Source: a virus (Duplodnaviria > Caudoviricetes). Taken from it: DNA of 64,000 bases. The notes beneath the pieces were generated by a model that had not been told where the DNA came from, ran no database searches, and was given only the letters and a program-made list of their open reading frames with translations. Below, in pieces: positions 1,158 to 63,990 of the stretch; position 1 is the stretch's first letter, and every line of letters starts with the position of its first letter. The position numbers and the translations under genes are program-made. The stretch covers positions 1-64,000 of the IMG/VR virus record IMGVR_UViG_3300027845_000169; one strand, written 5' to 3'.

Positions 1158-2120
1158 ATGCACCCTATTAAGGACCCAAGATTGTGGGCTTTAGGTGGTG
1201 TTGGCCTACTCATTTACCTTCAAACAGAACACGGTTTGTTTGGTGGAGGCTCTTTCTATGGCAAGGCAGAACATGAAGAAGATGAAGATATTTCATCCTG
1301 TTCGTGGTGTAGTGACGACATCGTATCCGAAAAAGATGAGAGATACATTAGAGGAGAATTAATTTGTGAGGAGTGCGAAAGTGCTTGGCATGAACAACCT
1401 GCTGATGGAGGCTTTGGGGCTGAAGGCGAAGATATGTGGAAAGCACCAACTTTCCGAGAAGAAGTTAATGAAATTGCTTGGGGTAACATGACGGACCGTG
1501 AACCTTTTGAAGATGAAGAAACTCTTGAGAAACTTCATGAGTATGCTATCAAATCTTTTGGATTTGAAGAGTTGAGGGTTGTATTACTGAAAGAAGGTAA
1601 CATAAGTCCAGCAGTTCAAGACATACTGGAAGAGGAAGCCTATGAAGCAGAAAGCCACGCTTTGATGGCAGACATGACTGGAATTATGCCACCGTCTGCT
1701 CTATGGAATGAGGAAGATGATGAGGCAGATTTGGATTCATCAAACTATTTCGCCGAAACGATTATAGGTGATGACTTCCACGCTGAATACATGGCAGACA
1801 GTAAGAGTGGCGGGTCATCCAGCCGATTTATGAAACCAAGCGAGGTCATTGACCTATTCAAGAAAGCAAATGGCACACTTGTTAGTGTAACATTTGTCAA
1901 GCGCACCAATGGCGAAGTCCGTAAGATGCTCGCTCGCACCTCCGTTAAGAAGGGTGTCAAGGGTGTCGGACTCAAGTTCAGTCCAAAGAACAAGAACCTT
2001 ATGGGAGTTTATGACTTCCAAAAAGTCCGTGAGGGTGCTGACCCTTGGAAATGCTACCGTTTCGTTCCTGTTGATGCAGTTCTCTCCATGCGAGTTCGTG
2101 GTAAGACCTACACCGCATGA
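1158..2120 (+). CDS. Membrane-anchored mosaic protein (N-terminal TM helix, CxxC module, acidic modules, C-terminal SH3/WYL-like domain)
   Basis: LWALGGVGLLIYL hydrophobic start; CSWC/CEEC; C-terminal TFVKRTNGEVRKM...VYDFQK...YRFVPVD resembles small phage SH3-barrel proteins; FGAE/YEAE/FHAE delimiters. Confidence 0.7.
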   Translation: MHPIKDPRLWALGGVGLLIYLQTEHGLFGGGSFYGKAEHEEDEDISSCSWCSDDIVSEKDERYIRGELICEECESAWHEQPADGGFGAEGEDMWKAPTFREEVNEIAWGNMTDREPFEDEETLEKLHEYAIKSFGFEELRVVLLKEGNISPAVQDILEEEAYEAESHALMADMTGIMPPSALWNEEDDEADLDSSNYFAETIIGDDFHAEYMADSKSGGSSSRFMKPSEVIDLFKKANGTLVSVTFVKRTNGEVRKMLARTSVKKGVKGVGLKFSPKNKNLMGVYDFQKVREGADPWKCYRFVPVDAVLSMRVRGKTYTA

Positions 2121-2153
2121 AGTTTCAAGTAGGAGATTGCTCAATCATCTATT

Positions 2154-2639
2154 ATGAATGAGGCAATGGTCGCCGAGGCATTGATGAATCTTAATGGCTT
2201 ACGAGCCAAGATAACAGTTCCTAATATGCTTCGCACAATGAGTTTATCTTCAAGAGGGCCTCATGCAACATCGGCTAAGGCTATCGTTAAGGAGTGGGCT
2301 GACAATGGTTGGCTCAATGGTGATGAGAAGTTAGGTTTCAAACCAACTAAAGAAGGTTTGGCTATCATTAGAAAGAAAGTGGTGGAAGAACCTTGGCTGG
2401 CAGAAGCCGAAGAATTGATTGATAAACTTGGAACTCCTAATTTACCGGAAATCAAATGGCGTGAAGAATTGAAACATCATAGTGAATGGTTCAAAGTTGC
2501 TCGTTGGCCTTTCCTCAAAGATTCAAGATTTTACTTGCGTGGTATCAACAATAAGGGAGAAGATAAACCACATTCACCACCCGAAGATGGATGGGTTGAA
2601 GGTGAAATCCCCTTAGATTGGATTCCATTAGGTGAGTAA
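2154..2639 (+). CDS. Hypothetical protein
   Basis: 161-aa ORF, co-oriented with neighbours. Confidence 0.6.
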   Translation: MNEAMVAEALMNLNGLRAKITVPNMLRTMSLSSRGPHATSAKAIVKEWADNGWLNGDEKLGFKPTKEGLAIIRKKVVEEPWLAEAEELIDKLGTPNLPEIKWREELKHHSEWFKVARWPFLKDSRFYLRGINNKGEDKPHSPPEDGWVEGEIPLDWIPLGE

Positions 2640-2641
2640 GT

Positions 2642-2974
2642 TTGCCTTACAAGGATAGGTCCAAAAGACTTGCTTATGCTAAGGCATACAACAAGAAACA
2701 TTATGAATCCAATCCCGAATACCACAAAGCCAAGGCTAAAAGGTCAAGGCAGACTGTGAAAGATTGGTTCAAAGATTTGAAGTCAAAACTGTCGTGCAAA
2801 GTTTGTGGTGAAGATGACCCCGTGGTATTAGACTTCCACCATCGTGATGAAACAACCAAAGAGTTCAGCATTTCCGAAGGACTGCGAAGGTATTCTCGGC
2901 AAAGAATGTTGGATGAAATAGACAAGTGTGATGTGATGTGTGCTAATTGTCACCGCCGTCATCATCATGGATAG
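2642..2974 (+). CDS. HNH endonuclease
   Basis: CKVC...LDFHH...CANCHRRHH zinc-binding HNH signature. Confidence 0.85.
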   Translation: MPYKDRSKRLAYAKAYNKKHYESNPEYHKAKAKRSRQTVKDWFKDLKSKLSCKVCGEDDPVVLDFHHRDETTKEFSISEGLRRYSRQRMLDEIDKCDVMCANCHRRHHHG

Positions 2975-3006
2975 GCTTTAAGTAGCGGAACTGACCATAG
3001 AATACT

Positions 3007-3135
3007 ATGCTCTCATTCTCACAACTTTTTGCTGATATTGAAATGGAGCAAGAAGCCAAAATTATAACTCTTTTTGGTGTTGCTACTATGCTGGGTGGTA
3101 TGGCTCTTATGGCAGTAAGTCATTATGGGAAGTGA
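3007..3135 (+). CDS. Small membrane protein (42 aa, not in ORF track)
   Basis: MLSFSQLFADIEMEQEAKIITLFGVATMLGGMALMAVSHYGK; TTAAGTAG at 2978, exactly 29 nt upstream. Confidence 0.6.
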   Translation: MLSFSQLFADIEMEQEAKIITLFGVATMLGGMALMAVSHYGK

Positions 3136-3352
3136 AATTATGCGTATGAATAATTATCCGGACGGGACTCCGATACCCGAAGCCCTACCTCAAGCCTACA
3201 AAGAAGGAAACTTAGCCCGCAATTGTGGTAACTGCTCCTTCGTCATGTTCTTAGACAATAACTACTATTGTGGTAAGTTTTCCGGCAATCCCGAAGTTCG
3301 TGCTAACTGGGTTTGTGCTGCTTGGAAACCTGCTATGCAACCTAAATCATAA
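3125..3352 (+). CDS. Small HiPIP-like four-cysteine protein
   Basis: CGNCSF...YCGKF...NWVCAAW resembles the high-potential iron-sulfur protein Cys pattern. Confidence 0.5.
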   Translation: MGSEIMRMNNYPDGTPIPEALPQAYKEGNLARNCGNCSFVMFLDNNYYCGKFSGNPEVRANWVCAAWKPAMQPKS

Positions 3353-3390
3353 GCCAAGGTTTATCTATGATACCGCACCCATAGGTCGGT

Positions 3391-4329
3391 ATGGAACATA
3401 AATGGTATGGCGACCATTCTGTTCAAACTGCTATATGGGCTATGGCTCGTAATCATGAAACTAAGTTTCAAATAGTGCATCGTGAAGGTGAAGTATTCGG
3501 CATTCGCCGCAGAAGAATGTGGGGAAGTGATGCCATAAAAACTGAATTGCAGACTTTATCTGCAAATCAAAGACCAATTGGAATCTTCATCAGCACTAAT
3601 GCTATCAATTGGAAAGTTATTCCACCGGATTTACTACCTCCTTCGTTGAGAAAGAAGGGAACAAGTGGTTACGATAACACCGCATTGAAAGGTTACAAGA
3701 AAACTTGGGACGGCTTATTGACTCCGGCAGCCTTGGAAGCCGTTGAAATGGATTTCATGGAAGTTTGGGACAATGGAAAGATTATGGTTTTTGACTTTGA
3801 CGATGAAGATAATCCGATGGCTGCCTTCAAAGCCGCACGACTGACACAAGATTATTTGGAAAAGGAACATCAAGTCAAAGGGGTGATGGTATTTAGTGGG
3901 AACAAAGGTTTTCACATTTGGGTTGCACCTACGGATGCTGAAAGTTTGGCAGGTTGTGTGCTCCAAGATTTCCGAACACAAGGGGACCCTTTGAAACAAC
4001 AAGGCCAACTTTACGCAAACTTTGTGAAACAAACAGTTTTGGCTGCCACGGGTAACTCTTTGCCAAATTATGATTTGTCGCCTAACTATCGTCAAGGTAT
4101 TGTTAGGTGTCCGTATTCCATTCACGAGAAGTCCGGACAAATTGTATGGCCACTTTCTCCAACTGAAGTTTTGGAATTACAAAAGTTTGAGGACAAAGTT
4201 CTGGACCCCGAAGGAGTTGCCCGGGTGCTCCACAGTTGGGACACTCCAAACTTTGTGGATTCTAAGAAAGGTTTGAGTTACTTTCCGCCTTGCACGAGTG
4301 TGCACTCAAGAAATATGTGGCGACTTTAG
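3391..4329 (+). CDS. priS: Archaeo-eukaryotic primase, catalytic small subunit-like
   Basis: VFDFD (motif I), FSGNKGFH (motif II), RCPYSIHEKSG. Confidence 0.8.
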   Translation: MEHKWYGDHSVQTAIWAMARNHETKFQIVHREGEVFGIRRRRMWGSDAIKTELQTLSANQRPIGIFISTNAINWKVIPPDLLPPSLRKKGTSGYDNTALKGYKKTWDGLLTPAALEAVEMDFMEVWDNGKIMVFDFDDEDNPMAAFKAARLTQDYLEKEHQVKGVMVFSGNKGFHIWVAPTDAESLAGCVLQDFRTQGDPLKQQGQLYANFVKQTVLAATGNSLPNYDLSPNYRQGIVRCPYSIHEKSGQIVWPLSPTEVLELQKFEDKVLDPEGVARVLHSWDTPNFVDSKKGLSYFPPCTSVHSRNMWRL

Positions 4330-5051
4330 TTCTTCTTCTTGCCAGTTAGAATAAGGACTGCACCTAATCCAATTATTCCAATTAACATCGGGCTAATTCC
4401 TACGGGCGGTGGTGTTGAACCTTGAATGGCAGCGTTTGGGTCACCCGAAGTAGTAGTCGTAGTAGTGCTTCCATCTTGTGGTAGCCCATAATCAATTTCC
4501 TCTTGCTCCTTTTCCGGAACATAAAGTTTGTATTCAATACAACCGGAAGGTTTAGCACAATTTCCGGAGGCTTTACCTACACAGGCTTCAATAGTATAGT
4601 TACCTGCACGGTCAAAAAGATATTCTTTGTAATTTTCATTAGGGCAATCTCCCTCACCTTCAACTCCCGAAATATCATTGTTGTGAATAACTTTAGTTTG
4701 GCCATCGGTGGACCTCCATGTTACTTTGACAGTTCCCTTATGTTTAGCAGTTTCGTCATAATGATAACCTGTCCCTGCTCCGCTGGTATCCTTTCCTCGG
4801 AATGATACAATCGCTGATGACTCAAATGGTATTTGTTCTTCGGGCGTTCCACGAATACCAATTTTCATACGGTGTCGTGTTCCACAATTATTGTAAGGGT
4901 CCTTTTGATACCATCCATCATTATTAGGGTCCGTTTCTGTCATCCATGTTACATCATCGTAATTCCACGGACATTCGGCATGAAAAGTTTGGGACTCGGA
5001 AGCATAGACATAGGAATATGGACCATTAGATACAAAGTAGTTGAAACTCAT
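4326..5051 (-). CDS. Cys-containing beta-rich protein with C-terminal membrane anchor
   Basis: Thr/Pro linker followed by TM helix and KKKN; similar to 62469-63329. Confidence 0.65.
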   Translation of the reverse strand: MSFNYFVSNGPYSYVYASESQTFHAECPWNYDDVTWMTETDPNNDGWYQKDPYNNCGTRHRMKIGIRGTPEEQIPFESSAIVSFRGKDTSGAGTGYHYDETAKHKGTVKVTWRSTDGQTKVIHNNDISGVEGEGDCPNENYKEYLFDRAGNYTIEACVGKASGNCAKPSGCIEYKLYVPEKEQEEIDYGLPQDGSTTTTTTSGDPNAAIQGSTPPPVGISPMLIGIIGLGAVLILTGKKKN

Positions 5052-7002: not shown

Positions 7003-7033
7003 AATTAAATAGTCGTAAGGCTAATTGATTATC

Positions 7034-23517: not shown

Positions 23518-23778
23518 ATGCTACGGTGTTATGCTTGCGGTGGATTTCCTACCGAAGATGGAGATACTGAAAAGTTTGCTCACGCCGATTGGTGCGAGAA
23601 ACAAGATTGTCCCAATTGTAAGCAAGTATTTCGTGGTTATATCGGGGCGCAGAACTGTCCGTTTTGCTTAGACCCGAAAGGTAAAAAGCGATACGAGAAC
23701 GATGCAGGGGCTTTCGTGCCGTTATTAAACAGTAAAGGAAAGTCCAATTTGGACCAAGAAACAGGATTGGTGGCATGA
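23518..23778 (+). CDS. Small Cys-rich zinc-finger protein
   Basis: CYAC, HxxxC, CPNC, CPFC; TTAAGTAG at 23489, 29 nt upstream. Confidence 0.6.
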   Translation: MLRCYACGGFPTEDGDTEKFAHADWCEKQDCPNCKQVFRGYIGAQNCPFCLDPKGKKRYENDAGAFVPLLNSKGKSNLDQETGLVA

Positions 23779-24809
23779 TGAACCCTAATAAATACGCAAA
23801 GTGGCAATTAGAATGGGCTAAGTTCACCGATGATTCAGTTAAGAGAATCAAAGAATACTCGGACGATACTCACCTTGAGCGTGAATGGATGTGTTACATC
23901 TATGAACAAGACTATGGAATTATGGTTGCTGGTAAGTCAATGCCACATCTATACCGTGATGACAGCGGAAAGGAGCAAACATTCCGTAGCAAAGAAAGAG
24001 CAGAAGAATATATGGTGGGGCACGGAATTACCGGAGCCGTTACACCAGTTTATCAAATGGGGAATGTTTCATACGGTGATGAATCCCGCATTGAAGTTAA
24101 TCCGGAATCAAAATCAACCCAAGACAACGCAGTTCGTGGACTCAAAAAAGAAAATAAAAGATGGACTATCCACGGACACCCACTCAAAGACGGCAAGATT
24201 TACACAGGTCGTCAATACTTCTCATCCACAGATATTTTGGATGAATATGTGAATACAAGAGATACTAACTCACCAGTCGTTCAATTCGTAGTATTCCCAC
24301 ACGAACAAGTTGATACAAATACAGGTCGCAAAGTTTTGCACAACAGATGCAGGGTTCTTATATTCCCCGATAGTGCAACAATTCAAAAGGCTATGAAAGA
24401 AGCGTCACCAAATACGGACCCTATGGCAATCAGCCGTGAAAACGGATTCAATAAAAACCAAGCCGATGGAAGTTTGGCAAACGAAATTGGGGCTGACTGG
24501 TTCCAATTCCAAGAAGCCTTGGGTAAAATGGGTTATATGGGGATAGTTGATATTGAAGGAAAGAAAGCCGGTGGTAAGGGAGCAGAAGGCGGTTCCACAC
24601 ATCTTGATACTGAACAAAATGAGGGTATGGGAGAATCATTTGGAGCAGAAGGACAGACAGCACTATTAATGGATGCTTTGAAAGTTGGGGCTTTAGCAGT
24701 TTTCGCTTTCGTGGCGACATCCAAACTTATGGGACACATAAAAGCCTCCGAGAGCAATGTTATAGATAACATGAATGCGGAGGAGGGTCCACATTGGTGG
24801 CATCAGTAA
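23775..24809 (+). CDS. Membrane-anchored protein with JAB/MPN-like metal motif
   Basis: ERE...IHGHP...FSSTD; C-terminal TM helix preceded by FGAE. Confidence 0.55.
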   Translation: MMNPNKYAKWQLEWAKFTDDSVKRIKEYSDDTHLEREWMCYIYEQDYGIMVAGKSMPHLYRDDSGKEQTFRSKERAEEYMVGHGITGAVTPVYQMGNVSYGDESRIEVNPESKSTQDNAVRGLKKENKRWTIHGHPLKDGKIYTGRQYFSSTDILDEYVNTRDTNSPVVQFVVFPHEQVDTNTGRKVLHNRCRVLIFPDSATIQKAMKEASPNTDPMAISRENGFNKNQADGSLANEIGADWFQFQEALGKMGYMGIVDIEGKKAGGKGAEGGSTHLDTEQNEGMGESFGAEGQTALLMDALKVGALAVFAFVATSKLMGHIKASESNVIDNMNAEEGPHWWHQ

Positions 24810-25795
24810 ATCTTATACAACCACGGGTGCGTGAAGGCACATCCGTCATGGGTATTGTAGGGAACTTAGACGAAGCCACAATTTATTGTGTGAAAGATGG
24901 GACTTACGAATGGGACGAGATAGCCTTTGAAGCAGATACCATCGGTCCGTATATTGGTAAGGGAATCGGCGGTATGGTTTTCCGATTGAAAGATGAAGAG
25001 GACCAATTCATTAACAAAGTTTTGAAAATAGTAAAACTTTTGCCAAGTGATATGACATTCGTGGAGTATGCAGAACAGCAGCCTATCGGATTACACCAAA
25101 AGGCTTGGGAATCTTTAGTCGGTTCCAAAGTTTTGGCTATGAATCAGTTTCAAGCAGACTTGATGACTACCTTGGCAGCCATTAACAAGGGTATTTACCC
25201 ACAAAGTTCCAAGACCCCTAAAGTTCCAAAGGCGTTACCTATTGTGTATTCATGTGCTCAAGGTGAAATGAATGAAGCCTTTAGAGAGAAAGTGTTTGAA
25301 GCCGAAAGGAATCATCCTTTTGATAAACAGTCGTTCCAACTTTTCCAAGATAACTTCCCCGTAGGAACACACATTGCTTACTGGATAATGGAATACATAC
25401 CTTGCACGGAAGAATCCGACCCTCCCTTCTGTGGTTTTGCCCCGTCAGCGGAAAATAGACCCAAGACAGCCCCCGAACTGGCAGCAGACCCAAGATTCCG
25501 AAAAGAACAGAAAGGTTATCAAGATGTTAGCAAGTTCCTATATGATATGGGCTGGGTCGTAAGAGATACAATTAATCCGGGAAACTTTGGATACCGTAAA
25601 GATGGGAGCGTAGTATTCTTTGATTTGTTCGTTATTCCGTGGCCTCCAAGTCGTATGGATGGTGAATTGAGGCAGATGGCACACTCGCTCATAGGCAAAC
25701 AAGACATTATAGATTACCGAAACAGTATCAAAAACGGCCATTATTTCAATAGACGCTCTCAATCGGGTGGATATAGTGCTGAAAACAGCCGTTAG
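24794..25795 (+). CDS. Protein kinase-like protein
   Basis: IGKGIGGMVF (Gly loop), VLKI, IMEYI, DTINPGNFG, VFFD. Confidence 0.7.
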   Translation: MVASVNLIQPRVREGTSVMGIVGNLDEATIYCVKDGTYEWDEIAFEADTIGPYIGKGIGGMVFRLKDEEDQFINKVLKIVKLLPSDMTFVEYAEQQPIGLHQKAWESLVGSKVLAMNQFQADLMTTLAAINKGIYPQSSKTPKVPKALPIVYSCAQGEMNEAFREKVFEAERNHPFDKQSFQLFQDNFPVGTHIAYWIMEYIPCTEESDPPFCGFAPSAENRPKTAPELAADPRFRKEQKGYQDVSKFLYDMGWVVRDTINPGNFGYRKDGSVVFFDLFVIPWPPSRMDGELRQMAHSLIGKQDIIDYRNSIKNGHYFNRRSQSGGYSAENSR

Positions 25796-33002: not shown

Positions 33003-33069
33003 AATAGCCCATACGGTAATTTCCTACTTAATGGTTCTTTGAAATAGGTGTTTGCACCTATGCCTAATC

Positions 33070-38026: not shown

Positions 38027-43933
<5,907 letters not shown>

Positions 43934-49064: not shown

Positions 49065-49502
49065 TCACCCTTTTATCTTTTCATAAATAGATGCGACTCC
49101 AATGAATGCAAAAGAAGCCATAATAACTGGAACTGCAATGTCGCCCAATGTGTTATAACTGTCTGTAACCATATCAGCGTGTCCCATTGTTCCATATTGG
49201 GGTGCCTCACCCTCTTCGCCTTCTTCATGTTCGGCTTGATACTGGGGTGGTAACTCATTTTTAGGCACAACTGCGGTAACTTGGTCCGGCTCTTGTGCTT
49301 CACGGCATCCATAAACATTCCATAGCGGATTACAAACTCTTTCTTCACCAATGCGGCGAGCGGTTGAACCCGGCATTGAATAGAATAAATAATACCAATC
49401 TTGAGGGTCTGCTCCACTTGAAGGTAAGATTTGATTCGGAGCAAAATTATTTGTTCCGCTAATCGGAGCAATAGTATCGTAACCTAACCAATTTGTTCCC
49501 AT
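49065..49502 (-). CDS. C-terminally anchored membrane protein
   Basis: C-terminal TM helix; YQAE motif. Confidence 0.6.
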   Translation of the reverse strand: MGTNWLGYDTIAPISGTNNFAPNQILPSSGADPQDWYYLFYSMPGSTARRIGEERVCNPLWNVYGCREAQEPDQVTAVVPKNELPPQYQAEHEEGEEGEAPQYGTMGHADMVTDSYNTLGDIAVPVIMASFAFIGVASIYEKIKG

Positions 49503-52631: not shown

Positions 52632-52994
52632 TCAATTAAGCCCAACTGTTCTTCCGTTAAAGTTTTGGCCAAAGGATACGACAGTTGCACGATTTACATA
52701 CGCTGCCATTGCTGGATTGTTCACATTACCGTTCATACCCGTAGCATCACTAACTCCATAGTTAGTCATGTTTTGACCTACTGCTTGTCCTCCCAACAAT
52801 TGAACATCCGTCATCACTTGTGATACGGACCCTTCATTTCTTTTTATGGCAGAAGTTGGCGGAGCATCAGTCGCTATGAAGTCAGCACGATACTCGGCAG
52901 ACTTAGAAGCCATGAATGAATCTAACCAACCAAGTTTCCAAGCGGCAACGCCGACTACTACGCCGACAACAACGGAACTAAGTGCAATCTTCAT
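52632..52994 (-). CDS. N-terminally anchored small protein
   Basis: N-terminal TM helix followed by KSAE and YRAD; promoter 29 nt upstream. Confidence 0.6.
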   Translation of the reverse strand: MKIALSSVVVGVVVGVAAWKLGWLDSFMASKSAEYRADFIATDAPPTSAIKRNEGSVSQVMTDVQLLGGQAVGQNMTNYGVSDATGMNGNVNNPAMAAYVNRATVVSFGQNFNGRTVGLN

Positions 52995-53151: not shown

Positions 53152-55215
53152 TCACTCCTTTTTATCATCAATCATTTGAGCGGAAATATATCCAATCGCT
53201 AATCCACCTATCAAACCAAGTGGCTTGGCCCAGCGAGGAACTTGGTCTTCAGCCTCCATGTCCTCGTCCTTGGGTTTATCATAGGTCATCCTGTTTTCTC
53301 TCATCCATTGGCCTTCGCACCCATCTCCACAGAATGCGTAATCCCCTTCATCACCCCACTTATTGTATATGGTGATTTCTTCCATTCCCTGCGGGTAATC
53401 ATTACTTCCTATACCACAGTTTTGGCAATGGAGTTCTCCCTCATCTTCGGCACCGAAAGAACCACTAACTTCAATCTCAACATCTTTTCCATCTTCATCA
53501 GTAGTATAGTGTGTATGGCTTATCCATGAATCAGTATTACCATCGTTAAAAGCATCTTCCATAACTCCTTTCATTTCTTCATTTACATAACCATCGTCAA
53601 TCAAGTCGTCATGCTCATGTGGATGAGGTTCAGTTTCCCAATGGTAATCTTTAACAACTTTCTTGGTAATTACTATTTCATCAGTTCCTTCAGCACCATA
53701 AGTAATACAAGGGTCTTTTCCACACCCACAATTCTTTTTACCTTCAGCACCATACTTTTTCATGTGGCTGGCTTGTTCTTGTTTAGCCCAATCCATGAAA
53801 GACAAAGTTTGGTGTTCGGCACCATAGGCTTCTTTTGGAGTCACAAATGTTCCATCTTTTTTATAATGGTCTAAGCCATCCATAGGGTAATCATATTTCA
53901 AAACGGAAAGGGCATCTAAATACTCCATATCTCCCATCTCATGGGTTTCTTCCCATCCTTCAATGTAGTCTGCTACTGCTTTTGTTTGTGCTTCTTCGGA
54001 TAATTCTTTGAAAGAGTATATTTTTATCTCACCTTCTGCATCCATGTTATTCCGTCCAATAACTTCCAATATGTATTCCCATTCTTCCGTCATTGCATCG
54101 TCATGATTTACATTGATAGTAGCACATTCTTTGACTTTCTTTAGCACTTCTCGTAAATGCTTGACTTCTGCTTCCGAACTTTCGCCTTCTGCACTCTTCT
54201 TCTTGAAACAGCCACAATCAGCGTCAAAGTATTCGGAATCGTAAAGAGCCATTTCCGCTCGCAAGGTATCGGACATTAGCCCACTACCTTCACAGTATGA
54301 ACAATCTTCATCACCTTCGGCACCCATTCCATCACAAGAGAAACAAGGTTCATCATAGCCTTCTGCTTCCATCATATCGTCTAACCATTCATCACTTTCA
54401 CATAGAGGACAAGCCAAAACGAAATCATATCCGCCTCCACCACTTCCGTCTGCGTCAATGAATATCAAATCTTCGTAAGTTCCATCCCATGCACAATCAA
54501 GACAAGAGATTTCATCCTCTAATTCATCATCCATAGCGGCTACCATTTCAGCCTTTTTAATATCAGTTGGATGTTTGAAAGAATGTTTGGGCTTACAATA
54601 GTCAGCAGCAGTCTTTCGGGGACCTCTTGGCTTAGTGGACTTTTTGTATTCAAAAGTTTGGGGAATATGACCTGCTAATTCATTCTTGTCGGAGTCAAAC
54701 TTAGGGCAACGAATACCATGATTCTTATAGGGTATAACTTTGAAATCGCCGTCATCACCTACTGCCTCTAACTCTCCAATGACTCCACTACAAAGAACTG
54801 GGTCCCCATTATCTCGGTGAACGAGGTAAGAGCCAATAACGCTGGCCTTGGTAGGGTCATCAACTTTAGGAGTAACGATAAAACGGTGAGTTTCTCCACG
54901 GTTCTTAACCATCATGTGCATTCCGGGTTGAGATGCAGCATCCCAAACAGTCCGAGCAATAAAGAATGGAGATTTATTATCATAGAAACGGCAATAACTT
55001 CCTTCCTTACGCTTGCCAATATAATTCTGCTTATCATTATAATGCTTGGCTGGATAGTGAGCCTCTAACTTAAACTTACCATTAGAAAGTCGGCGATTAA
55101 TACTAATCTTTTCCGGAAGTGCCTTGAAGTCAATAGGTGTTCCAAAGACTTGAGTTATACCCTTTGGATTAACGACTCCTTTGACCTTTGGACGACTTTG
55201 TTTCTTTGTGGCCAT
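53152..55215 (-). CDS. Mosaic polyprotein-like protein with Cys modules and C-terminal TM anchor
   Basis: Basic N-terminal domain then ~10 short modules (CLDC/CPLC, CFSC/CSYC, CGC, CQNC) separated by xAE; TTAAATAG 29 nt upstream. Confidence 0.7.
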   Translation of the reverse strand: MATKKQSRPKVKGVVNPKGITQVFGTPIDFKALPEKISINRRLSNGKFKLEAHYPAKHYNDKQNYIGKRKEGSYCRFYDNKSPFFIARTVWDAASQPGMHMMVKNRGETHRFIVTPKVDDPTKASVIGSYLVHRDNGDPVLCSGVIGELEAVGDDGDFKVIPYKNHGIRCPKFDSDKNELAGHIPQTFEYKKSTKPRGPRKTAADYCKPKHSFKHPTDIKKAEMVAAMDDELEDEISCLDCAWDGTYEDLIFIDADGSGGGGYDFVLACPLCESDEWLDDMMEAEGYDEPCFSCDGMGAEGDEDCSYCEGSGLMSDTLRAEMALYDSEYFDADCGCFKKKSAEGESSEAEVKHLREVLKKVKECATINVNHDDAMTEEWEYILEVIGRNNMDAEGEIKIYSFKELSEEAQTKAVADYIEGWEETHEMGDMEYLDALSVLKYDYPMDGLDHYKKDGTFVTPKEAYGAEHQTLSFMDWAKQEQASHMKKYGAEGKKNCGCGKDPCITYGAEGTDEIVITKKVVKDYHWETEPHPHEHDDLIDDGYVNEEMKGVMEDAFNDGNTDSWISHTHYTTDEDGKDVEIEVSGSFGAEDEGELHCQNCGIGSNDYPQGMEEITIYNKWGDEGDYAFCGDGCEGQWMRENRMTYDKPKDEDMEAEDQVPRWAKPLGLIGGLAIGYISAQMIDDKKE

Positions 55216-55699: not shown

Positions 55700-57100
55700 T
55701 CATCCGAATGAAGCATCGTGTGATACTGCCACCACATCATCTTCGTCATCCTCAAACATTAAGTCACGCTTGGCCAAGTCTTTCTTAGCACGGTCACGGT
55801 GGGCCAACATAAGTTTGGTTGCCGACTCTAAATGTTTTTGCGATACTTTGGCCTTTTTTGCATCATATTGAGAATCTTCTAAGGCCATCACAAACGCATT
55901 CCTAACTATTTCTTCTATGTAGGCTCCCGACAATCCTTTAGTTTGTTTGACGATAGATTTCATATCAACGATTCCTTTCACAGTTAATGACTTGAGGTAT
56001 TTCTCAAAGATTCTTCCACGAAGTTTCTCATCGGGATAACCTAATTCCATGCGAGCGTCAAATCTTCCGGGTCTGTCTGTCAAAGCCCAATCAAGTTTGT
56101 CAGCATGATTAGTAGTAGCAAGGGTAACTACACCGGAGTTAGACTCCACTCCGGAGAGTGCGTTGAGGAACTCACCCAATAGTGGATGGTCGCCATCGTA
56201 ACGACTTACTCCACCGAGAGTATCTAAGTCCTCAAAGATTAGGAGGGTTGGGGCTAACTTTTGAGCCAGTTTGTAAGCATCTCCAATATCTCCGACATCT
56301 TCAATACTTTCACGAGTCACTACCATTGTAGTAACATCAACATCATTCATCAAAACATTGCAGGTCAAAGTTTTCCCAGTTCCCGGCGGTCCAGTAATCA
56401 AAACTCCTCTTGATAGTTTGAGGGAATGACCTTTGAATACATCCATGTTGTTCAAGAAGTCCACTACATTCCGCTGCAAGGTCTGTCGGTGTTCCTTAGA
56501 GATAACTACATCATCCCAACCATTTTCGGGAGATTCAGTAATGAACTTGTAATTGGAATAAAACTTCTCCCCTTTGAGGAGGCAATTATCATAAAAGTAA
56601 GCCATAAAGTTTTGCCAAAGATTCTTACCAACCTTACATTTATGGTCAAACATTATGCGTAAATCAAGGTTCAGTCCATCGTATGGAAGGAATTGAATGG
56701 CTACGGCAGCATCGGAGGTTTTGTGCTTAAGATGTGCAATAAGTTTGAGTGGGATTTTATACACAGTCCCTTTCAAATTGAAATCGTGATAGATAGGACT
56801 AACAGAAGAATTACCGTGTCCGTAATTGACTACATCACAAACTTCATAGTTTTCTCTAATATATCGCCAAAAGCATTCCATAGTAACGGCGAACTCTTTT
56901 TCACTAACTTCTTGAACTTTAGTTTCAATCAATTCACCATCAATCCAAGCCTTAGCATCTGCGTCTGCCTTGTCTATATGAGGGAGTGTATTCCTCAATG
57001 TTTCAAGACCCATTAGGAAATCTGTCATTGGTTCTGTATCAAGGCTAACATCTCCCATCGGAGTGTTCATTACGAGTGTCGGGGGCATTGGTTGGCTCAT
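55700..57100 (-). CDS. AAA+ ATPase (classic clade, CDC48/FtsH/PAN-like)
   Basis: GVLITGPPGTGKT, LIFEDLD, ATTNH, DRPGRFD, GLSGA; promoter 29 nt before ATG 57100. Confidence 0.9.
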   Translation of the reverse strand: MSQPMPPTLVMNTPMGDVSLDTEPMTDFLMGLETLRNTLPHIDKADADAKAWIDGELIETKVQEVSEKEFAVTMECFWRYIRENYEVCDVVNYGHGNSSVSPIYHDFNLKGTVYKIPLKLIAHLKHKTSDAAVAIQFLPYDGLNLDLRIMFDHKCKVGKNLWQNFMAYFYDNCLLKGEKFYSNYKFITESPENGWDDVVISKEHRQTLQRNVVDFLNNMDVFKGHSLKLSRGVLITGPPGTGKTLTCNVLMNDVDVTTMVVTRESIEDVGDIGDAYKLAQKLAPTLLIFEDLDTLGGVSRYDGDHPLLGEFLNALSGVESNSGVVTLATTNHADKLDWALTDRPGRFDARMELGYPDEKLRGRIFEKYLKSLTVKGIVDMKSIVKQTKGLSGAYIEEIVRNAFVMALEDSQYDAKKAKVSQKHLESATKLMLAHRDRAKKDLAKRDLMFEDDEDDVVAVSHDASFG

Positions 57101-57125
57101 GTTCTTGAACTTGGCAAACACCTAC

Positions 57126-58254: not shown

Positions 58255-58279
58255 AGTAGTCGGTGGTTCTATCTTACAC

Positions 58280-58918
58280 TTACTGTGCAGATAGTAGGCT
58301 TCTCTTATACCAATCCACATTTCCAGGGTTGATGCTTATTCCCATCTCTAACAGTTTGTTAGCGATAAGAGCGTCCGGCCCGTCATATAGAGTGTATTTA
58401 GTAAAGCATCTTAGGCTTCCGCTAACACATTGAGTTGCTGCTGTTGGCAATCCTGTGTTGTTATACCATGTAACCAATACATCCCAAACTTGTCCCGGTA
58501 GGACATAAACATCTGGGTATAGGTTGAACGAAGGTTGGAAGTTCACAGACCTTGGGTAAGGACTTGCTGAACCTGGGATACCATCGTTTGGCACATTGTC
58601 TGGGTCAAGGAAATAATCAGTTGTGTTGATTCTCACTTGAACGAAAGCACGAGGGCCTCCCATTCCGCTTCCAGCAGTTCCCACGGTTAGACCACGGTAT
58701 GTGCCGGATGTTCCGGATGAAAGGAATGCTGTTGGAGTAACTGCAATATCTTCAATAACAACGAACTCGGTAGCAGAAGTTTCTGCTGGCTTTGTGATGT
58801 TGTTACCTAATCCACCAACGAAGATGGAGATTTGCTGTCCGACATTGGATGCAATATCCACTACTGCTGATGAGTAGTTAGTTGCGTCCCATTCATAGAC
58901 TTGGCTTCGCATTGACAT
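58280..58918 (-). CDS. Putative major capsid protein (paralog 2)
   Basis: Highly similar to the adjacent gene (MSMRSQVYEW, GNNITKPAET, FVVIEDIA, RINTTDYF, YPDVYVLPGQ, KYTLYDGPDALIANKLLE); beta-rich; capsid role inferred. Confidence 0.55.
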   Translation of the reverse strand: MSMRSQVYEWDATNYSSAVVDIASNVGQQISIFVGGLGNNITKPAETSATEFVVIEDIAVTPTAFLSSGTSGTYRGLTVGTAGSGMGGPRAFVQVRINTTDYFLDPDNVPNDGIPGSASPYPRSVNFQPSFNLYPDVYVLPGQVWDVLVTWYNNTGLPTAATQCVSGSLRCFTKYTLYDGPDALIANKLLEMGISINPGNVDWYKRSLLSAQ

Positions 58919-59574
58919 TAAGCACCAACTCCTTGTGCAGCAGCCATAGCAGCCGCAGATGCAGCAGCCTGTTGCTGTTCAATAAGTGAACGCTTATACC
59001 AATCAACATTGTTTGGGTTGATTGTGACACCAAGTTCCAAAAGTTTGTTAGCAATAAGAGCGTCCGGTCCATCGTAAAGTGTGTATTTAACGAATGCTGC
59101 GACAACATCTGTTGATGTTGATGCTCCGCCACCTACACCATCACGAGTGGTGTAAAGAATCTGCCATGTTTGGCCCGGTAGGACATATACATCTGGGTAT
59201 AGGTCAAAGGACTTTAGCAAATTGTCGGTTCCGCTTGCAGTTGAAGCACTACCACGAGGGTAGGGGCTTGCAAGTCCCGGGATTCCCAACATATTTGTTA
59301 CATCGGGGTTTTGGAAGTAGTCAGTCGTATTAATACGAATCTGGACATTTCCATTTGCTTGTGCGGAACACGCAATGTCTTCAATTACAACGAACTGTGT
59401 CGCTGTTGTTTCGGCTGGCTTGGTAATGTTATTTCCATATCCACCAATAAACAAATCTAACTCACGGTTTGCGGGCAATTCCACAGGCAAGTCGGATGTG
59501 GTTCGGCGAAGTGTGGAAGTCTTACCCGTAGGCGCTAAATTGGCCCACTCATATACTTGGCTTCTCATACTCAT
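58918..59574 (-). CDS. Putative major capsid protein (paralog 1)
   Basis: As above; preceded by promoter at 59630-59637 and a 5' leader hairpin. Confidence 0.55.
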   Translation of the reverse strand: MSMRSQVYEWANLAPTGKTSTLRRTTSDLPVELPANRELDLFIGGYGNNITKPAETTATQFVVIEDIACSAQANGNVQIRINTTDYFQNPDVTNMLGIPGLASPYPRGSASTASGTDNLLKSFDLYPDVYVLPGQTWQILYTTRDGVGGGASTSTDVVAAFVKYTLYDGPDALIANKLLELGVTINPNNVDWYKRSLIEQQQAAASAAAMAAAQGVGA

Positions 59575-59629: not shown

Positions 59630-59637
59630 CTACTTAA
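59630..59637 (-). promoter_or_regulatory. Promoter TTAAGTAG (structural/late class)
   Basis: CTACTTAA on + strand, upstream of the putative capsid operon. Confidence 0.65.
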
Positions 59638-59767
59638 AGGGTTCGGTTTAGAAAGGAAACCATTTATGATTTGAAATCCCTACTTTATATTACACGCACA
59701 CACGAGGGGTGCGATTTTGCTAAGGCTTACGCAGGGACCTTCAAAAAGTTAAGTCTTCTAAACGAAC

Positions 59768-59983: not shown

Positions 59984-60002
59984 TCTTAATCACCATTTAT
60001 AT

Positions 60003-60248: not shown

Positions 60249-60265
60249 ATTATTCAACTCCTTAT

Positions 60266-60520
60266 TCAAACTTCCTCGGATACTCCAAGTGGGTCTATTT
60301 CTTTACCAATAAGTTTCTTGGAAAGAACAGCAACACCAATGGATAGTGGGATTATAGAGAGGACACGACCAACTGTTAGCCATGATTGACCGAACAAAGT
60401 CTTTTCCATCATATCGGAAAGTCCGCCACCTACAAAGTGAACAGCACCGACAAGAACGAGAGCACCACCAACGGTCCAATCGTTAATCAACATTCCTTGA
60501 ACTTTACTTACCATATCCAT
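60266..60520 (-). CDS. Small two-TM membrane protein
   Basis: VGGALVLVG...DPLG; GGAGGT upstream. Confidence 0.6.
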   Translation of the reverse strand: MDMVSKVQGMLINDWTVGGALVLVGAVHFVGGGLSDMMEKTLFGQSWLTVGRVLSIIPLSIGVAVLSKKLIGKEIDPLGVSEEV

Positions 60521-60521
60521 T

Positions 60522-61505
60522 TTAGAAACCTCCTTCTGCACCGAAGTCAAAACTTACACCGTGACCGGAGCCACCAGCGGAAGGGTATGACGCTGAAAGA
60601 ACGAATGGGTTTTCGGACTCGGCAAAGCCTGTGCTTCCCGGTCTAATGTATGCTCCCCAAATATCTTCTTGGCCACCAACATATTCTTTCTTGGTTACAG
60701 GAGCGTCCGCACTAATTGTTGGGACATCTTCTGCATACCAAACTGGTGGTTGGTAAGAAGGTGTGACTGGTGTGATTGATGCAACAAATGGGTTGGACCT
60801 TTTATCCATTGTTCCCATTGCGAGTGCATCAGTAGCAGCCGTGAAATCGTTAATTCCTAAGTCGCTTGGTGCTTGGAATCCTGTGCTCATGCTTTCTGCT
60901 CCAAAGTTTTGAGTGATTGTTCCAGCCATTGTGGAACCTTCAACTACTGAATCAAGTGGAACACGCTCTTGAGGTGCGTATCTGTCAGCCATCTGTTGTG
61001 TTGCATATACGAATGATTGGTCGTCTTCAACCAATTCTCCGGTTTCTGCCATAGGGCGAGTATCGTATGTTGCACCGACTTGACCGAGAACTCGGCCATT
61101 TCCGTCAGGTTGTAAGATGAACTCACTACCAAATGATGAACTTCCGCTTCTTAGCCATCCGCCAAGTTGCTTAAATCCGGGAACATTAAAGTAACCCAAA
61201 AGGTGAGCAAGTCCAACACCAGCAGTTAGGGAACCAAAAGTAGTTCCAAAGGCTCGTGTGCTTGCATCCTTAGTTGCGGCCCAGCCTACTATGGCTGCTC
61301 CACCTACAAGGAGGGTTCCGGTGCGTAGGATATTTCCAGCAGCACCAATTCGGTCAAAGGGCATCATTGTGAAGATACCACCAGCGATTGCAGCCGCAGC
61401 GACACCAGCAACACCATAATAAAGGGTCTTGCTTTGTAGTGTATCAACTCCGGATTCAACAAGGTCGGTGATACCGTCTGTCGTCTTGCTTACAAGGTCG
61501 GTCAT
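60522..61505 (-). CDS. Membrane protein with xAE-delimited C-terminal region
   Basis: Three N-terminal TM helices; FGSE, FGAE, WYAE, FGAE. Confidence 0.65.
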   Translation of the reverse strand: MTDLVSKTTDGITDLVESGVDTLQSKTLYYGVAGVAAAAIAGGIFTMMPFDRIGAAGNILRTGTLLVGGAAIVGWAATKDASTRAFGTTFGSLTAGVGLAHLLGYFNVPGFKQLGGWLRSGSSSFGSEFILQPDGNGRVLGQVGATYDTRPMAETGELVEDDQSFVYATQQMADRYAPQERVPLDSVVEGSTMAGTITQNFGAESMSTGFQAPSDLGINDFTAATDALAMGTMDKRSNPFVASITPVTPSYQPPVWYAEDVPTISADAPVTKKEYVGGQEDIWGAYIRPGSTGFAESENPFVLSASYPSAGGSGHGVSFDFGAEGGF

Positions 61506-61531
61506 ATTATCCATTACTCCTTCGCCGCTAC

Positions 61532-62431
61532 TTAAAGACTCCTACCGTTGCTATAAAGCGAAGCCGAGCGTGGAACTCGGACTCCTTGCGTTATGTGTGA
61601 GTTGGGCTTATTACCCAACGCATCTCTCACGGTTCCCATTTGGGAACGGGTCAATGGTGCGGGAATATGTGATGGGCCTCCAAAGCCTCCTACTTGGTGG
61701 CGAACGCCTTGTGCGTGTATAGTAACATTAGTTGAGTTAAAAGATTGAGCGGACATCGGTTGCGACCCATTTGCGGTCTTAGCCAATGCAGGGGTCAAAG
61801 TAAGTTCTGCTCCAAAAGGTGTCATTACGCTTTCGGCGTATGAAACATCCGGAGATGTAACCATTTGACCTGCTGCTTGATTAGCAGTTTGAGGTGTAGT
61901 GAAATCGGGATTAGAGGTAGCACGGTTGGCGTGTTGAATAACAAGATTGCTGATTTGTCTTTTGAATCCAGCAGTAAAGTCATTTCTGTTTTCAATAACT
62001 CCTAAGAATCGGTTAAGTGAATAAGTCCCTTGTCTTTGGATATTGACTGTTTTGACAGTTTCAGTATCTCCGGAATCCCCTCCAAAGAATCCCATAAACT
62101 TTTGTCCCATTGTTTTAGGAACTTCTTCCACACGGTAAAGGGTCCAAACTTGTCCCGCAGGGTTAAACTCTAATTCATAACCTGCACCAATGTTTTGAGA
62201 AAGAGGTCCCATTGATTCTGCTTGGCTAACTTTACGAGTTGAAGTTGCACGAGATAACGGGTTGTTAGTCATCGTCCCTAACTTTGTTCCTAAGATTGCT
62301 TCTGCACCTTTGGCACTTGAAGAATAGGAAGTTAGTTGATAACGACCACCATGATTATCCATTACACCGTGCATAGCATTTTCCATAGGGCCACGCTTGA
62401 GGGTGTTTTGAATCGCTATATCCAAGTTCAT
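61532..62431 (-). CDS. Hypothetical (putative virion) protein
   Basis: Promoter 29 nt before ATG 62431; KGAE, SYAE, FGAE. Confidence 0.6.
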   Translation of the reverse strand: MNLDIAIQNTLKRGPMENAMHGVMDNHGGRYQLTSYSSSAKGAEAILGTKLGTMTNNPLSRATSTRKVSQAESMGPLSQNIGAGYELEFNPAGQVWTLYRVEEVPKTMGQKFMGFFGGDSGDTETVKTVNIQRQGTYSLNRFLGVIENRNDFTAGFKRQISNLVIQHANRATSNPDFTTPQTANQAAGQMVTSPDVSYAESVMTPFGAELTLTPALAKTANGSQPMSAQSFNSTNVTIHAQGVRHQVGGFGGPSHIPAPLTRSQMGTVRDALGNKPNSHITQGVRVPRSASLYSNGRSL

Positions 62432-62468
62432 GTTATTCACTACTCCTTCTCGCTACTTAAAGACTCCT

Positions 62469-63329
62469 TCAAAACTGCATAAATGATTGTCGGCTGATTC
62501 GTGGCATGAATATAGGACGGGTGAACTCGGCCTTGTATGTTTCCGCTGCGCTGGCCTCGGCTCCACAATCTTCCGGAACGACTCTAAAGACATCTCCATC
62601 GTATTCAACAGAATGAGATGTGTCGGCATTTCTTTTGTATGTGTAGGTAACCTTTACAGTCCATACCCCACAAGATGATTCATTATTAGGAATACGGAAC
62701 TTTCCATTTAGATTACTCCATGATGTCTTTCCGGGACCTCGGCTTTGACCTCCGGCCACGGTCATAACTCCACTATCGTCTGCATAAGTCTGCCCTTGAG
62801 GGTCAGTCCAAACAACGGTCCATGACAAACCACCATCACCACCACCGGCTCCGCCATCAGCGTAAGGTGGAAGCCAACATTTCTTATCAACATAGCCTTT
62901 TGATGCTCCATATTCACCACAGTTAGCCTTGCTGGTGTTATAGACGGATAAATCTAATTCCCACTCCACTTCTTGATTGACGAAGTATTGTTCTTGATTA
63001 GTTTCAAAATCTTCCATCTTAATTCCTTTAGGCTTATATGCTGCGTTGCTAAACTCCTTTTTCTTTTGGCTGTTAAACCAAACCTTTTTCTCGGCATGAT
63101 GTTCTTCACGATATTTATCGCAATTACAAGGGCCTACATTTGAAGAATCGTCACCATCAGTTGTTTCTGTGGTTGAAGTGTCGTCAGTATTGTCAGTTGT
63201 TGTTGTAGTTGTCGTAGTTGCTGCTGGTGTAGTTGCTGCCGGTAATGTGCTTGCTGAACTTTGGCTGTTCATATACCATATCAGTCCGCCACCTATTGCC
63301 GCTATACCAATTAATTTATTCCGGTCCAT
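62469..63329 (-). CDS. N-terminally anchored Cys-containing beta-rich protein
   Basis: TM helix, poly-Thr linker, HHAE before the globular domain; similar to 4326-5051. Confidence 0.65.
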   Translation of the reverse strand: MDRNKLIGIAAIGGGLIWYMNSQSSASTLPAATTPAATTTTTTTTDNTDDTSTTETTDGDDSSNVGPCNCDKYREEHHAEKKVWFNSQKKKEFSNAAYKPKGIKMEDFETNQEQYFVNQEVEWELDLSVYNTSKANCGEYGASKGYVDKKCWLPPYADGGAGGGDGGLSWTVVWTDPQGQTYADDSGVMTVAGGQSRGPGKTSWSNLNGKFRIPNNESSCGVWTVKVTYTYKRNADTSHSVEYDGDVFRVVPEDCGAEASAAETYKAEFTRPIFMPRISRQSFMQF

Positions 63330-63330
63330 C

Positions 63331-63990
63331 TTAATCACTTCTTTTCATATTTGCTATAATTGGTAATAGGAGAGCCACTCCGGACGCAACCGCAATTGGC
63401 ATCCAGTTAGTTTTCTGCTCGGCTTCCTTTACCATTTGTATAGGAACGGGAGATAGAGATTCAAGAGCCTTGACCTCCATTGATGGTGGAAGGTAATTTA
63501 CAATTTTAGAGGCTGGCACTCGTTGAACGATGTGTCGTGCAGCGGAAGGTGTTTCTCCTTCATAGTGTCGGCGACTCCACAAAGTAGCCGCAATCTTTAC
63601 CTTAGAAATCTCTTCATCAAATCCGGCTGCCTTGAGTGTAGCCCAAATCATCTCCAAAGTATTGGTTCCTTCTTCGTGTCCGTCCTCACCTTTTGGTGGG
63701 AACAACCATGATTGATAATCAGCCAAAGGCATGGCTGCAATATCCACTCGGTCTTCGGCCATTGAAACTTCAAAGTTATAGTCGTTAGGACTCTCCATGT
63801 ATGGTGCTGGGACTGGTTCACTCATTGGACCACCTTCTTCCATAGGGTCAATTCCACTTGGTTCCAGTAGGTGTGGTGCGTCTAAGTTTCCATGTTCACC
63901 TGCATTCGGCAAAGTTTCCACATTATCTTCCGACATAGTAGGTTCTTCAATAACGGGTTCGTCTTCCGGTTCATCTCCGACTTCCGACAT
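63331..63990 (-). CDS. Acidic protein with C-terminal TM anchor (possibly truncated by window edge)
   Basis: Reading frame stays open to the window end; SMAE and KEAE before the TM helix. Confidence 0.6.
   Translation of the reverse strand: MSEVGDEPEDEPVIEEPTMSEDNVETLPNAGEHGNLDAPHLLEPSGIDPMEEGGPMSEPVPAPYMESPNDYNFEVSMAEDRVDIAAMPLADYQSWLFPPKGEDGHEEGTNTLEMIWATLKAAGFDEEISKVKIAATLWSRRHYEGETPSAARHIVQRVPASKIVNYLPPSMEVKALESLSPVPIQMVKEAEQKTNWMPIAVASGVALLLPIIANMKRSD

Follow-up and report, generated by a model that had tools for sequence, protein, structure and literature searches.

The window analysed here, bases 1–64000 of the 150,353-bp linear IMG/VR virus record IMGVR_UViG_3300027845_000169 (Duplodnaviria; Caudoviricetes), encodes mosaic proteins built from small modules that end in a common four-residue motif. 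The motif is best written [F/Y/M, also K/W]-x-A-E, with Gly preferred at the second position and Gly or Asp preferred after the Glu. It is strongly over-represented in the proteins of the record, and its distribution makes it probable that it is the recognition site of a predicted endoproteolytic processing system. An initial annotation of the window had proposed a somewhat broader delimiter, [F/Y/M/L]-x-A-[E/D], at which membrane-anchored mosaic proteins would be cut. The 13 open reading frames (ORFs) that it named all exist and carry the tetrapeptides that it quoted (Table 1). Below, ORFs are called by their first coordinate.

Sequence statistics were obtained with a greedy ORF set, in which the longest non-overlapping ORFs of at least 50 amino acids were taken from the first ATG, GTG or TTG start. 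The set comprises 206 ORFs in the 150-kb record; a 1968-residue collagen-like ORF was excluded, and 205 were counted. The pattern [FYM].AE, referred to here as the core motif, occurs 72 times against 24.9 expected (standard deviation 4.8, z 9.8), and none of 1000 whole-protein shuffles reached this count. In the window alone it occurs 37 times against 10.5. The looser pattern [FYMLW].A[ED] occurs 160 times against 86.9 (z 8.3). The enrichment over shuffled controls that the initial annotation foresaw is thus found with both patterns, and its definition of the motif stands for [FYM].AE. Asp at the last position and Leu at the first add little, because the variant controls are near expectation: [FYM].AD (31 versus 22.7) and [ILV].AE (53 versus 42.1) are not significantly enriched. 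Neither are [FYM].SE (19 versus 21.9) and [FYM].GE (21 versus 27.3), and the reversed motif EA.[FYM] is flat (21 versus 23.8). Among 301 A-E dipeptides, Met, Phe, Lys and Tyr are enriched two places before the Ala, Lys by 1.9-fold. Of the 72 core sites, 20 have Gly at the second position and 17 have it after the Glu, which marks Gly as preferred in both places. Variants with Gly are correspondingly frequent: [FYMLW]GAE occurs 24 times against 3.5 expected, FGAE 10 times against 0.6 and GAEG 12 times against 1.6.

These numbers could in principle be an artefact of acidic, Ala-rich linkers, since A-E dipeptides are themselves somewhat over-represented (312 versus 227.6). Local composition was controlled by shuffling within blocks of 20 residues. 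The expectation then is 24.6, and none of 300 block shuffles reached the observed 72. Together with the whole-protein shuffles and the flat reversed and near-miss motifs, this control already refutes an origin in chance or composition, to which we give practically no weight. The Ala codons at the motif (GCT/GCA/GCC/GCG 24/32/32/12%) are used as they are genome-wide (29/33/28/9%). Selection therefore acts on the protein and not on the DNA, and a signal at the DNA level was ruled out on the same ground.

The motif is unevenly distributed among the proteins. The 15 replication and sugar enzymes assigned by Pfam hold four core sites against 4.4 expected, in agreement with the initial annotation, which had found the motif only sporadically in replication enzymes; the other 190 ORFs hold 68 against 20.1. 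Half of the core sites (36 of 72) fall in six proteins, the products of ORFs 1158, 50243 and 53152 of the window and of ORFs 74854, 108657 and 120286 of the record. With these six removed, the remaining non-enzyme ORFs still contain 36 sites against 17.9 expected (z 4.3).

The position of the motif was clearest in the family of the 53152 product. We collected 46 relatives from a collection of 5.8 billion proteins, with the search restricted to lengths of 377–1203 amino acids. Most of them share the N-terminal approximately 340 residues and most have a C-terminal hydrophobic helix, while the middles vary in length and content. All 46 carry core sites (1 to 9 each). When the sequences are split at the motif, the same small units recur in varying numbers and orders; they include a 24-residue helix, an 18-residue Cys-rich peptide, a Cys-ribbon domain of 61–66 residues and an 83-residue acidic unit. 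To examine the boundaries without assuming the motif beforehand, we also recorded where BLASTP blocks between relatives begin and end within the proteins. Block ends fall at the Glu or up to two residues after it (+0 to +2) in 330 of 1137 cases, compared with 78 of 1105 random positions, and block starts fall at −3 to −1 of the Glu in 178 of 711. The starts peak at −1, the Ala, and the ends show no peak before the motif; this places the first two motif residues in the upstream module, so that each module has the motif as its C-terminal end. Clustering of 385 segments from 44 relatives gave 96 families, 54 of them singletons. The head (families 0, 2, sometimes 8, then 1) and the anchor are fixed and the middles variable, and both orders were seen for the family pairs 13/3, 6/3 and 16/3. 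One unit from the 53152 relatives is also present in the 120286 product of the record, a protein anchored at its N-terminus instead.

The family of the 50243 product behaves in the same way. Its 46 database relatives hold 243 motifs against 29.1 expected, and the ends of high-scoring segment pairs fall at the Glu in 71 of 468 cases compared with 8 of 464 random positions. The boundary test had first been tried on 12 relatives taken from metagenome loci, which gave four ends and four starts, and was redone with the database relatives. Pfam domain edges agree with these boundaries. In the 7025 product YRAE (276–279) lies between DUF5872 (154–263) and DUF5754 (287–340), and in the 50243 product FGAE (428–431) follows the WGR domain (365–425) by two residues. 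The proposal that the motif falls between distinct modules is therefore supported by Pfam edges as well as by block ends, and it is indeed precisely at the motif that related genomes have acquired, dropped or rearranged modules. Most of the differences between near-identical strains lie in their module arrays. This turnover suggests diversifying pressure of the kind that acts on host-interaction factors.

Tandem 42-residue units, three to four in number and each ending in MNAE, were observed in relatives of the 50243 product in two loci (L021 4526–6358 and L022 13205–14869). Such units show that some modules arise by duplication. The motif might then be a relic of the way in which the arrays were built, inherited from a duplicated unit or marking a junction favoured by recombination, with no role in the protein. 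We consider this very improbable. The modules include unrelated Pfam domains (WGR, DUF5754, DUF5872) and 96 sequence families, and with unbiased Ala codons no more than five bases per junction are fixed. The motif is also found at conserved terminal positions of proteins that are not mosaics.

Table 1. Motif-bearing proteins of the window, followed by other features of the window and of the remaining record. Residue numbers refer to the protein.
Position	Strand	Length (amino acids)	Feature	Details
1158..2120	+	320	Protein with basic C-terminal domain	No Pfam family; four core motifs, FGAE 86, YEAE 162, YFAE 197, FHAE 207, upstream of the C-terminal domain
4326..5051	-	241	Tail-anchored-like protein	FHAE 23–26, Thr-rich stalk, C-terminal helix
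7025..8350	+	441	Two Cys-ribbon modules, DUF5872, DUF5754, C-terminal anchor	Junctions KEAE, LKAE, LGAE, YRAE, KSAE; KSAE 29 residues before anchor; TTG start at 7025 (initial annotation began the same ORF at 7034)
23775..24809	+	344	Protein	KGAE; FGAE 289, 15 residues before hydrophobic helix; MNAE 333 near C-terminus
24794..25795	+	333	Protein	FEAE 168; YSAE 327 near C-terminus
49065..49502	-	145	Tail-anchored-like protein	YQAE 88, 34 residues before helix
50243..51958	-	571	Mosaic protein	WGR domain 365–425, C-terminal anchor; seven core motifs (136, 217, 251, 428, 473, 485, 500), also LDAE, LHAE, FEAD
52632..52994	-	120	Protein	N-terminal helix, then KSAE, YRAD; zero core motifs
53152..55215	-	687	Mosaic protein	Basic conserved N-domain (~1–285), module string, C-terminal hydrophobic anchor; eight core motifs (282, 297, 391, 464, 488, 506, 587, 653), KSAE at 340
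60522..61514	-	330	Protein	FGAE 204, WYAE 259, FGAE 324 (three residues from C-terminus)
61532..62440	-	302	Protein	KGAE 44–47, FGAE 209
62469..63338	-	289	Protein	CGAE; YKAE 268 near C-terminus
63331..64000	-	234	Tail-anchored-like protein	Gene continues to record base 64035; KEAE 9 residues before helix; zero core motifs
33052-36612	+		PolD large subunit DP2	Three Pfam domains, E 1e-80 to 1e-120
38027-43933	-	1968	Collagen-repeat protein	Pfam 2e-223
55700-57121	-		Classic AAA ATPase	AAA and AAA_lid_3; N-terminal ~230 residues without assignment
58280-58918 and 58918-59574	both -	212 and 218	Two adjacent proteins	Most conserved of the region
76890-86380 (record)	-		Conserved block	HerA/FtsK-type packaging ATPase, VWA-like protein, 748-residue ORF, zincin-like protein, 1235-residue AAA+ protein (AAA_lid_2)
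81440-82633 (record, outside window)	-	397	HExxH zincin-like protein	No Pfam family match
98250-99443 (record, outside window)	-		ArsA/Get3-family ATPase	Pfam ArsA_ATPase 2e-59
137873-139213 (record, outside window)	-		PolD small subunit DP1	Pfam DNA_pol_E_B and Metallophos

The carriers are putative virion proteins, to judge from their gene neighbourhood. In the 4326 product FHAE could mark a short N-terminal propeptide. The single core occurrence in the 62469 product may be due to chance, and the 24794 product, neither of whose sites is kept in a distant relative, is a doubtful member of the group. An extended element consists of G-H/Y-G-V, often after S-V-V-V/E-x-A-P, with the A-E site following four to five residues downstream; it is shared by four otherwise unrelated proteins (50243-51958 and 60522-61514 of the window, 95112-95993 and 108657-110726 of the record) and their relatives.

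The initial annotation had placed the motif in membrane-anchored proteins, typically beside a terminal transmembrane helix. By a hydropathy scan, ORFs were called tail-anchored-like if their only hydrophobic helix lies in roughly the last 45 residues, and 18 ORFs of the record fall in this class. They contain 22 core sites against 3.0 expected, 15 of them in two proteins, and this is where the enrichment is strongest. It extends, however, to other transmembrane proteins (11 versus 4.8) and to ORFs with neither a transmembrane helix nor a known function (36 versus 13.8). The core motif is carried by 8 of the 18 tail-anchored-like ORFs and is lacking in 10. If any x-x-A-E is counted, a site lies at most 40 residues upstream of the C-terminal helix in 8 of the 18, at distances of 9–38 residues; the other ten have none there, and most copies of the motif are internal. 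The link between motif and membrane anchor is real but partial. An archaeosortase-type signal (the kin of PGF-CTERM) was rejected, the motif being mostly internal and otherwise 9–38 residues upstream of the helix, although no search for an archaeosortase was made. The record also encodes an ArsA/Get3-family ATPase with a 43%-identical orthologue in a distant 136-kb relative. It would fit a virus that makes many tail-anchored proteins, for which it may be a candidate insertion factor.

The enrichment persists in relatives of the virus. In 19 of 23 metagenome loci the core motif is enriched with z of at least 2.7; those below this value include L017, L024 (z 1.6) and L027, and three of the four are short or have few ORFs. 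In two distant contigs, at 26–54% protein identity, the core motif occurs 44 times against 14.7 expected (136 kb, z 7.8) and 35 times against 11.9 (61 kb, z 6.8). Their A-D, S-E, G-E, A-Q and reversed controls are flat except for [FYM].SE on the 136-kb contig (z 2.0). Single sites are conserved to different degrees. Five relatives, reaching down to about 43% identity, retain all three sites of the 60522 product, with A-D, S-E and a first Leu as variants. Beyond the last of these sites the tail is between 3 and about 25 residues long, and site 204 is absent from the most distant relative. In the 61532 product KGAE 44–47 is present in all six aligned sequences, and FGAE 209 is less conserved. 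In a nearer relative (L025), A-E is kept at four of five sites compared with 9 of 20 other A-E dipeptides.

We read the motif as a processing site because it ends unrelated modules, precedes the anchor and sits near the termini of other proteins, and because selection on it acts at the protein level, enzymes show no enrichment of it and it persists throughout the clade despite the turnover of its copies. The substrates would be mosaic precursors with a conserved head, a series of variable small modules that each end in the motif and, often, a C-terminal membrane helix. The modules are 15 to about 140 residues long and include zinc ribbons, short helices, WGR, DUF5754 and DUF5872 domains and many orphans. 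A cut at each site would free them from each other and from the anchor, and other proteins would lose short N- or C-terminal peptides. Two registers can be envisaged. Cleavage after the Glu, with an aromatic residue or Met at P4, Ala at P2 and Glu at P1, would be in keeping with a Ser or Cys protease. Cleavage between Ala and Glu, which puts Glu at P1′, would fit a metallopeptidase and agree with the precedent of VP1 of the archaeal virus SSV1, described below. The anchor may lie in a virion membrane, and the freed modules might be packaged or delivered. Self-processing of the 2A or intein type was set aside; no signatures of it were seen, though no dedicated search was made.

The motif might instead be a tag that is recognised and never cut, such as a docking or packaging signal or a site of Glu modification, one per module, for an assembly factor. 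The enrichment, the choice of carriers and the cassette boundaries by themselves show only that a tag at module ends is selected. Furthermore, the extended G-H/Y-G-V element could be a binding epitope, and a classical protease was not found. However, sites lie 3–8 residues from the C-terminus with tails of free length, or 5–40 residues from N-termini, as is typical of processing, and a tag both between unrelated modules and before an anchor is hard to explain in a chain that stays intact. An uncut tag therefore seems unlikely to us.

A predicted processing system needs an enzyme. A regular-expression scan for HExxH gave two matches, one of which is the zincin-like protein of Table 1. This protein has 22 relatives among 1.84 billion cluster representatives. 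The sequence HExxHxxxHP and a downstream SDIxVN block, which include the third metal-ligand His, are kept in 13 of 15 aligned relatives, that is, in all rows that cover the region. The AlphaFold model has a mean predicted local distance difference test score (pLDDT) of 85. In a wide structural search, 21 of the best 22 rows are zinc metallopeptidases, among them ZMPSTE24, selecase, ERAP1, BlaR1, abylysin and BepA, with Z of 4.8–6.9, a range that is common according to the tool. Look-alikes in the Atlas named DUF2201_N score 0.90. A zincin-like homologue is present in three of three distant relatives' bins, and the gene order of the block is the same on both contigs that were fetched. In this block the HerA/FtsK-type packaging ATPase was seen to have a C-terminal helix of its own, preceded by MAAE.

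Several results weigh against this interpretation. About 25 of the 72 core hits, roughly a third, are expected by chance. Proteins with an orthologue in the two distant contigs contain 34 and 25 sites, of which 13 and 12 can be aligned; A-E is kept at only 1 of the 13 and 3 of the 12, compared with 9 of 75 and 15 of 51 other A-E dipeptides. In our reading most true sites would lie in fast-evolving linkers and arrays that cannot be aligned, and many isolated hits within folded domains, such as YKAE in the helicase, would be among the chance occurrences. Global pairwise alignments gave a weak signal, with 15.7% of indel edges within two residues of a site compared with 9.4% for random positions. 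The AlphaFold model of the 53152 product, made from a 12-row alignment, has a pLDDT of 34 and cannot be used to map linkers. The Pfam families C48 (PF02902), C5 (PF00770), S77 (PF03420) and S78 (PF04586) gave no match at E ≤10, the last two having been searched in six frames of the 150-kb record; S21, S80, C57 and C63 were not searched. No Pfam peptidase is among the families listed for the 188 ORFs scanned, from which the 18 ORFs shorter than 62 amino acids were left out. The cut-off was E ≤0.01 for large ORFs and three pooled runs and 0.01 for ten mosaic ORFs; 148 ORFs were pooled, and one pooled batch lists 25 of 31 families, the other six being weak. Regular expressions for Ser- and Cys-protease signatures returned nothing convincing. 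The zincin-like protein itself has no Foldseek match at E ≤0.001 and is not matched by Pfam DUF2201_N (PF13203), the name of its look-alikes notwithstanding, and its assignment as a zincin rests on the motif and modest Z scores, which are supportive. Its one link to the x-A-E sites is co-occurrence with the enrichment, and we name it as their cutter only tentatively. The initial annotation had expected a protease elsewhere in the genome. We detected no classical viral protease, and the enzymes it took as models (T4 gp21 and its jumbo-phage counterparts, the poxvirus and adenovirus proteases) have no detectable homologue here; what the rest of the genome does offer is the zincin-like candidate gene outside the window.

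A host enzyme is equally possible as the cutter. In one version of this explanation an archaeal protease of the host would cut, possibly between Ala and Glu so that the products start with Glu, and the zincin-like gene would be otherwise employed. No canonical viral protease is detectable in the record, and the VWA-like and large AAA+ neighbours of the zincin-like gene need not concern maturation. The accessible text of a study of SSV1 VP1 gives a precedent: mature VP1 begins with a conserved Glu, the residues immediately before this Glu are essential, and no viral protease is known (PMC5748691). The enrichment and the zincin-like gene (three of three) are nevertheless both kept at 26–54% identity, and an enzyme borne by the virus fits this at least equally well. 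Processing by the host with the zincin-like gene serving elsewhere thus appears doubtful to us, although it deserves attention.

Returning to processing by an enzyme of the virus, the observations can be combined into one picture, which we offer as speculative. An undescribed clade of PolD-encoding viruses would use a proteome-wide x-A-E code, read by a new family of zincin-like peptidases. Captured mini-proteins, in hypervariable arrays, would be made as one tail-anchored precursor, whose insertion the Get3/ArsA ATPase of the virus might assist, and would then be released piece by piece. Any domain that gained the four-residue ending would become a deliverable module, and the turnover of modules would reflect an arms race with the host.

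Processing of virion or structural proteins at a short motif is already known as a type. The prohead proteases T4 gp21 and phiKZ gp175 recognise a short Glu-ending motif in many virion proteins and remove propeptides. The T4 internal proteins combine a conserved targeting and cleavage leader with a variable body, in parallel to the plug-in system considered here. The closest description, in the accessible part of its source, is that of SPN3US gp245, an enzyme that cleaves head proteins after A-X-E, each propeptide at several places (PMC10052503). The likeness to these three enzymes lies in the Glu-ending motif present in many proteins, the multiple sites per precursor and the short terminal peptides that would be removed. 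The motif here is x-A-E, however, and not A-x-E or L-x-E, with an aromatic residue or Met two places further back. There is no S77 or S78 match, and the substrates are long arrays of shuffled modules, many of them membrane-anchored.

African swine fever virus (ASFV), a large DNA virus with an internal membrane, has its polyproteins pp220 and pp62 cut by pS273R, and pp220 is tethered to a membrane. At the adenovirus site, P4 is hydrophobic and P2 is small. The predicted cutting of structural polyproteins at short motifs would be shared with ASFV, adenovirus and poxvirus, the membrane tether with ASFV and the P4/P2 pattern with adenovirus. The sites of these viruses are Gly-Gly-X or Ala-Gly-X, their enzymes are Ulp1-like cysteine proteases and the tether is a lipid. 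In contrast, the motif here ends in Ala-Glu, with [FYM].GE not enriched, C48 and C5 gave nothing and the tether would be a C-terminal helix. We know of no cassette shuffling in the ASFV, adenovirus or poxvirus polyproteins. SSV1 VP1 resembles the processing predicted here as an archaeal virus protein processed next to a conserved Glu with no recognisable viral protease, but it has one site in one protein of a 15-kb virus, whereas here the motif is proteome-wide and accompanied by module arrays. Minimal zincins (selecase, abylysin, jannalysin and the M48 members Ste24, BepA and HtpX) share the HExxH helix and the further His with our candidate. Its best structural matches have Z of 6.9 to 5.8 over 97–162 aligned residues; unlike these enzymes, it has no Pfam family match and an extra β-rich C-terminal half. 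Hypervariable cassettes between short recognition motifs are also a feature of cyanobactin precursors of the PatE type and of prohormones. Their cores, which dedicated enzymes modify, consist of a few residues, whereas the cassettes here are mini-domains in genes of the structural region of a virus. The cassette architecture is unusual. A full-text literature search, with subscription journals and supplements outside its reach, returned no polyprotein system of an archaeal virus.

Provided that the sites are indeed cut, they would form a proteome-wide maturation code, the first to be described in an archaeal virus to judge by full-text searches. Mature products, propeptides and released peptides could then be read from sequence for dozens of orphan genes. 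For this clade, found widely in marine metagenomes, the cassette architecture amounts to a simple rule for the capture and swapping of small domains. It also makes the module arrays likely host-interaction factors, since they hold most of the differences between near-identical strains. In a system that has no cultured host, one candidate peptidase and a defined set of substrates are now at hand.

The viruses of marine archaea to which the record belongs encode PolD, have genomes of roughly 136–155 kb and form what appears to be an undescribed clade. A description of such a clade was not found by full-text search with the same reach as above. Both subunits of the archaeal family-D DNA polymerase are encoded, as identified by Pfam. 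The initial annotation had noted that the window lacks DP1, which proved to be encoded elsewhere in the record. DP2 is 54% identical to its counterpart in the distant 136-kb relative. The accessible text of a 2024 paper names only PolA, PolB and PolC as the polymerases common in DNA viruses (PMC11348598). Pfam also assigned MCM, an SF2 helicase, an ATP-dependent ligase, PCNA, primase, TBP and TFB, an archaeal-type Holliday junction resolvase, ribonucleotide reductase and many glycosyltransferases. The ATPases include a classic AAA ATPase as well as the ArsA/Get3-family and HerA/FtsK-type ATPases. Terminase, portal and HK97 capsid families are not among the Pfam and PHROGs matches listed. In the search for a capsid type, five β-rich ORFs had no PHROGs or Pfam match, and the Atlas returned only unnamed viral clusters.

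CheckV estimates the completeness of the record at 53%, and yet relatives' contigs from independent assemblies are 146–154 kb long; the first and last 3 kb of the record share no terminal repeat. No relatives came from a first scan of genome contigs or from IMG/VR, which was queried with two proteins of the window, one alignment and two relatives of the zincin-like protein. Neither the zincin-like protein nor the 58918 product has a match in the GenBank phage collection. Contigs of 117–154 kb encoding relatives of the window proteins are present in several public assemblies, and the syntenic relatives come from marine metagenomes and from three bins of bacterial metagenome-assembled genomes. 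The clade contigs in these bins (L029, L030 and L031, up to 136 kb) carry the labels Acidiferrobacteraceae and Rickettsiales, and one cluster member bears the name Crocinitomicaceae. Such labels evidently result from mis-binning and are not evidence of a host.

Other genes of the window deserve a brief description. The classic AAA ATPase gene lies directly upstream of the main mosaic gene (53152), a synteny that is kept in all relatives; its product may be a membrane-extraction or unfolding partner. The two adjacent proteins at 58280 and 58918 contain no core motif. Searches of Pfam, PHROGs and PDB sequences gave no match to either. They are by far the most conserved nearby, at about 79–84% identity in loci whose neighbours reach 33–49%. 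The stretch with the collagen-like gene has a G+C content of 50–57%, compared with some 43% in the other parts. Glycosyltransferase genes lie on either side of it, and one of their products weakly matches a prolyl-hydroxylase substrate-binding domain.

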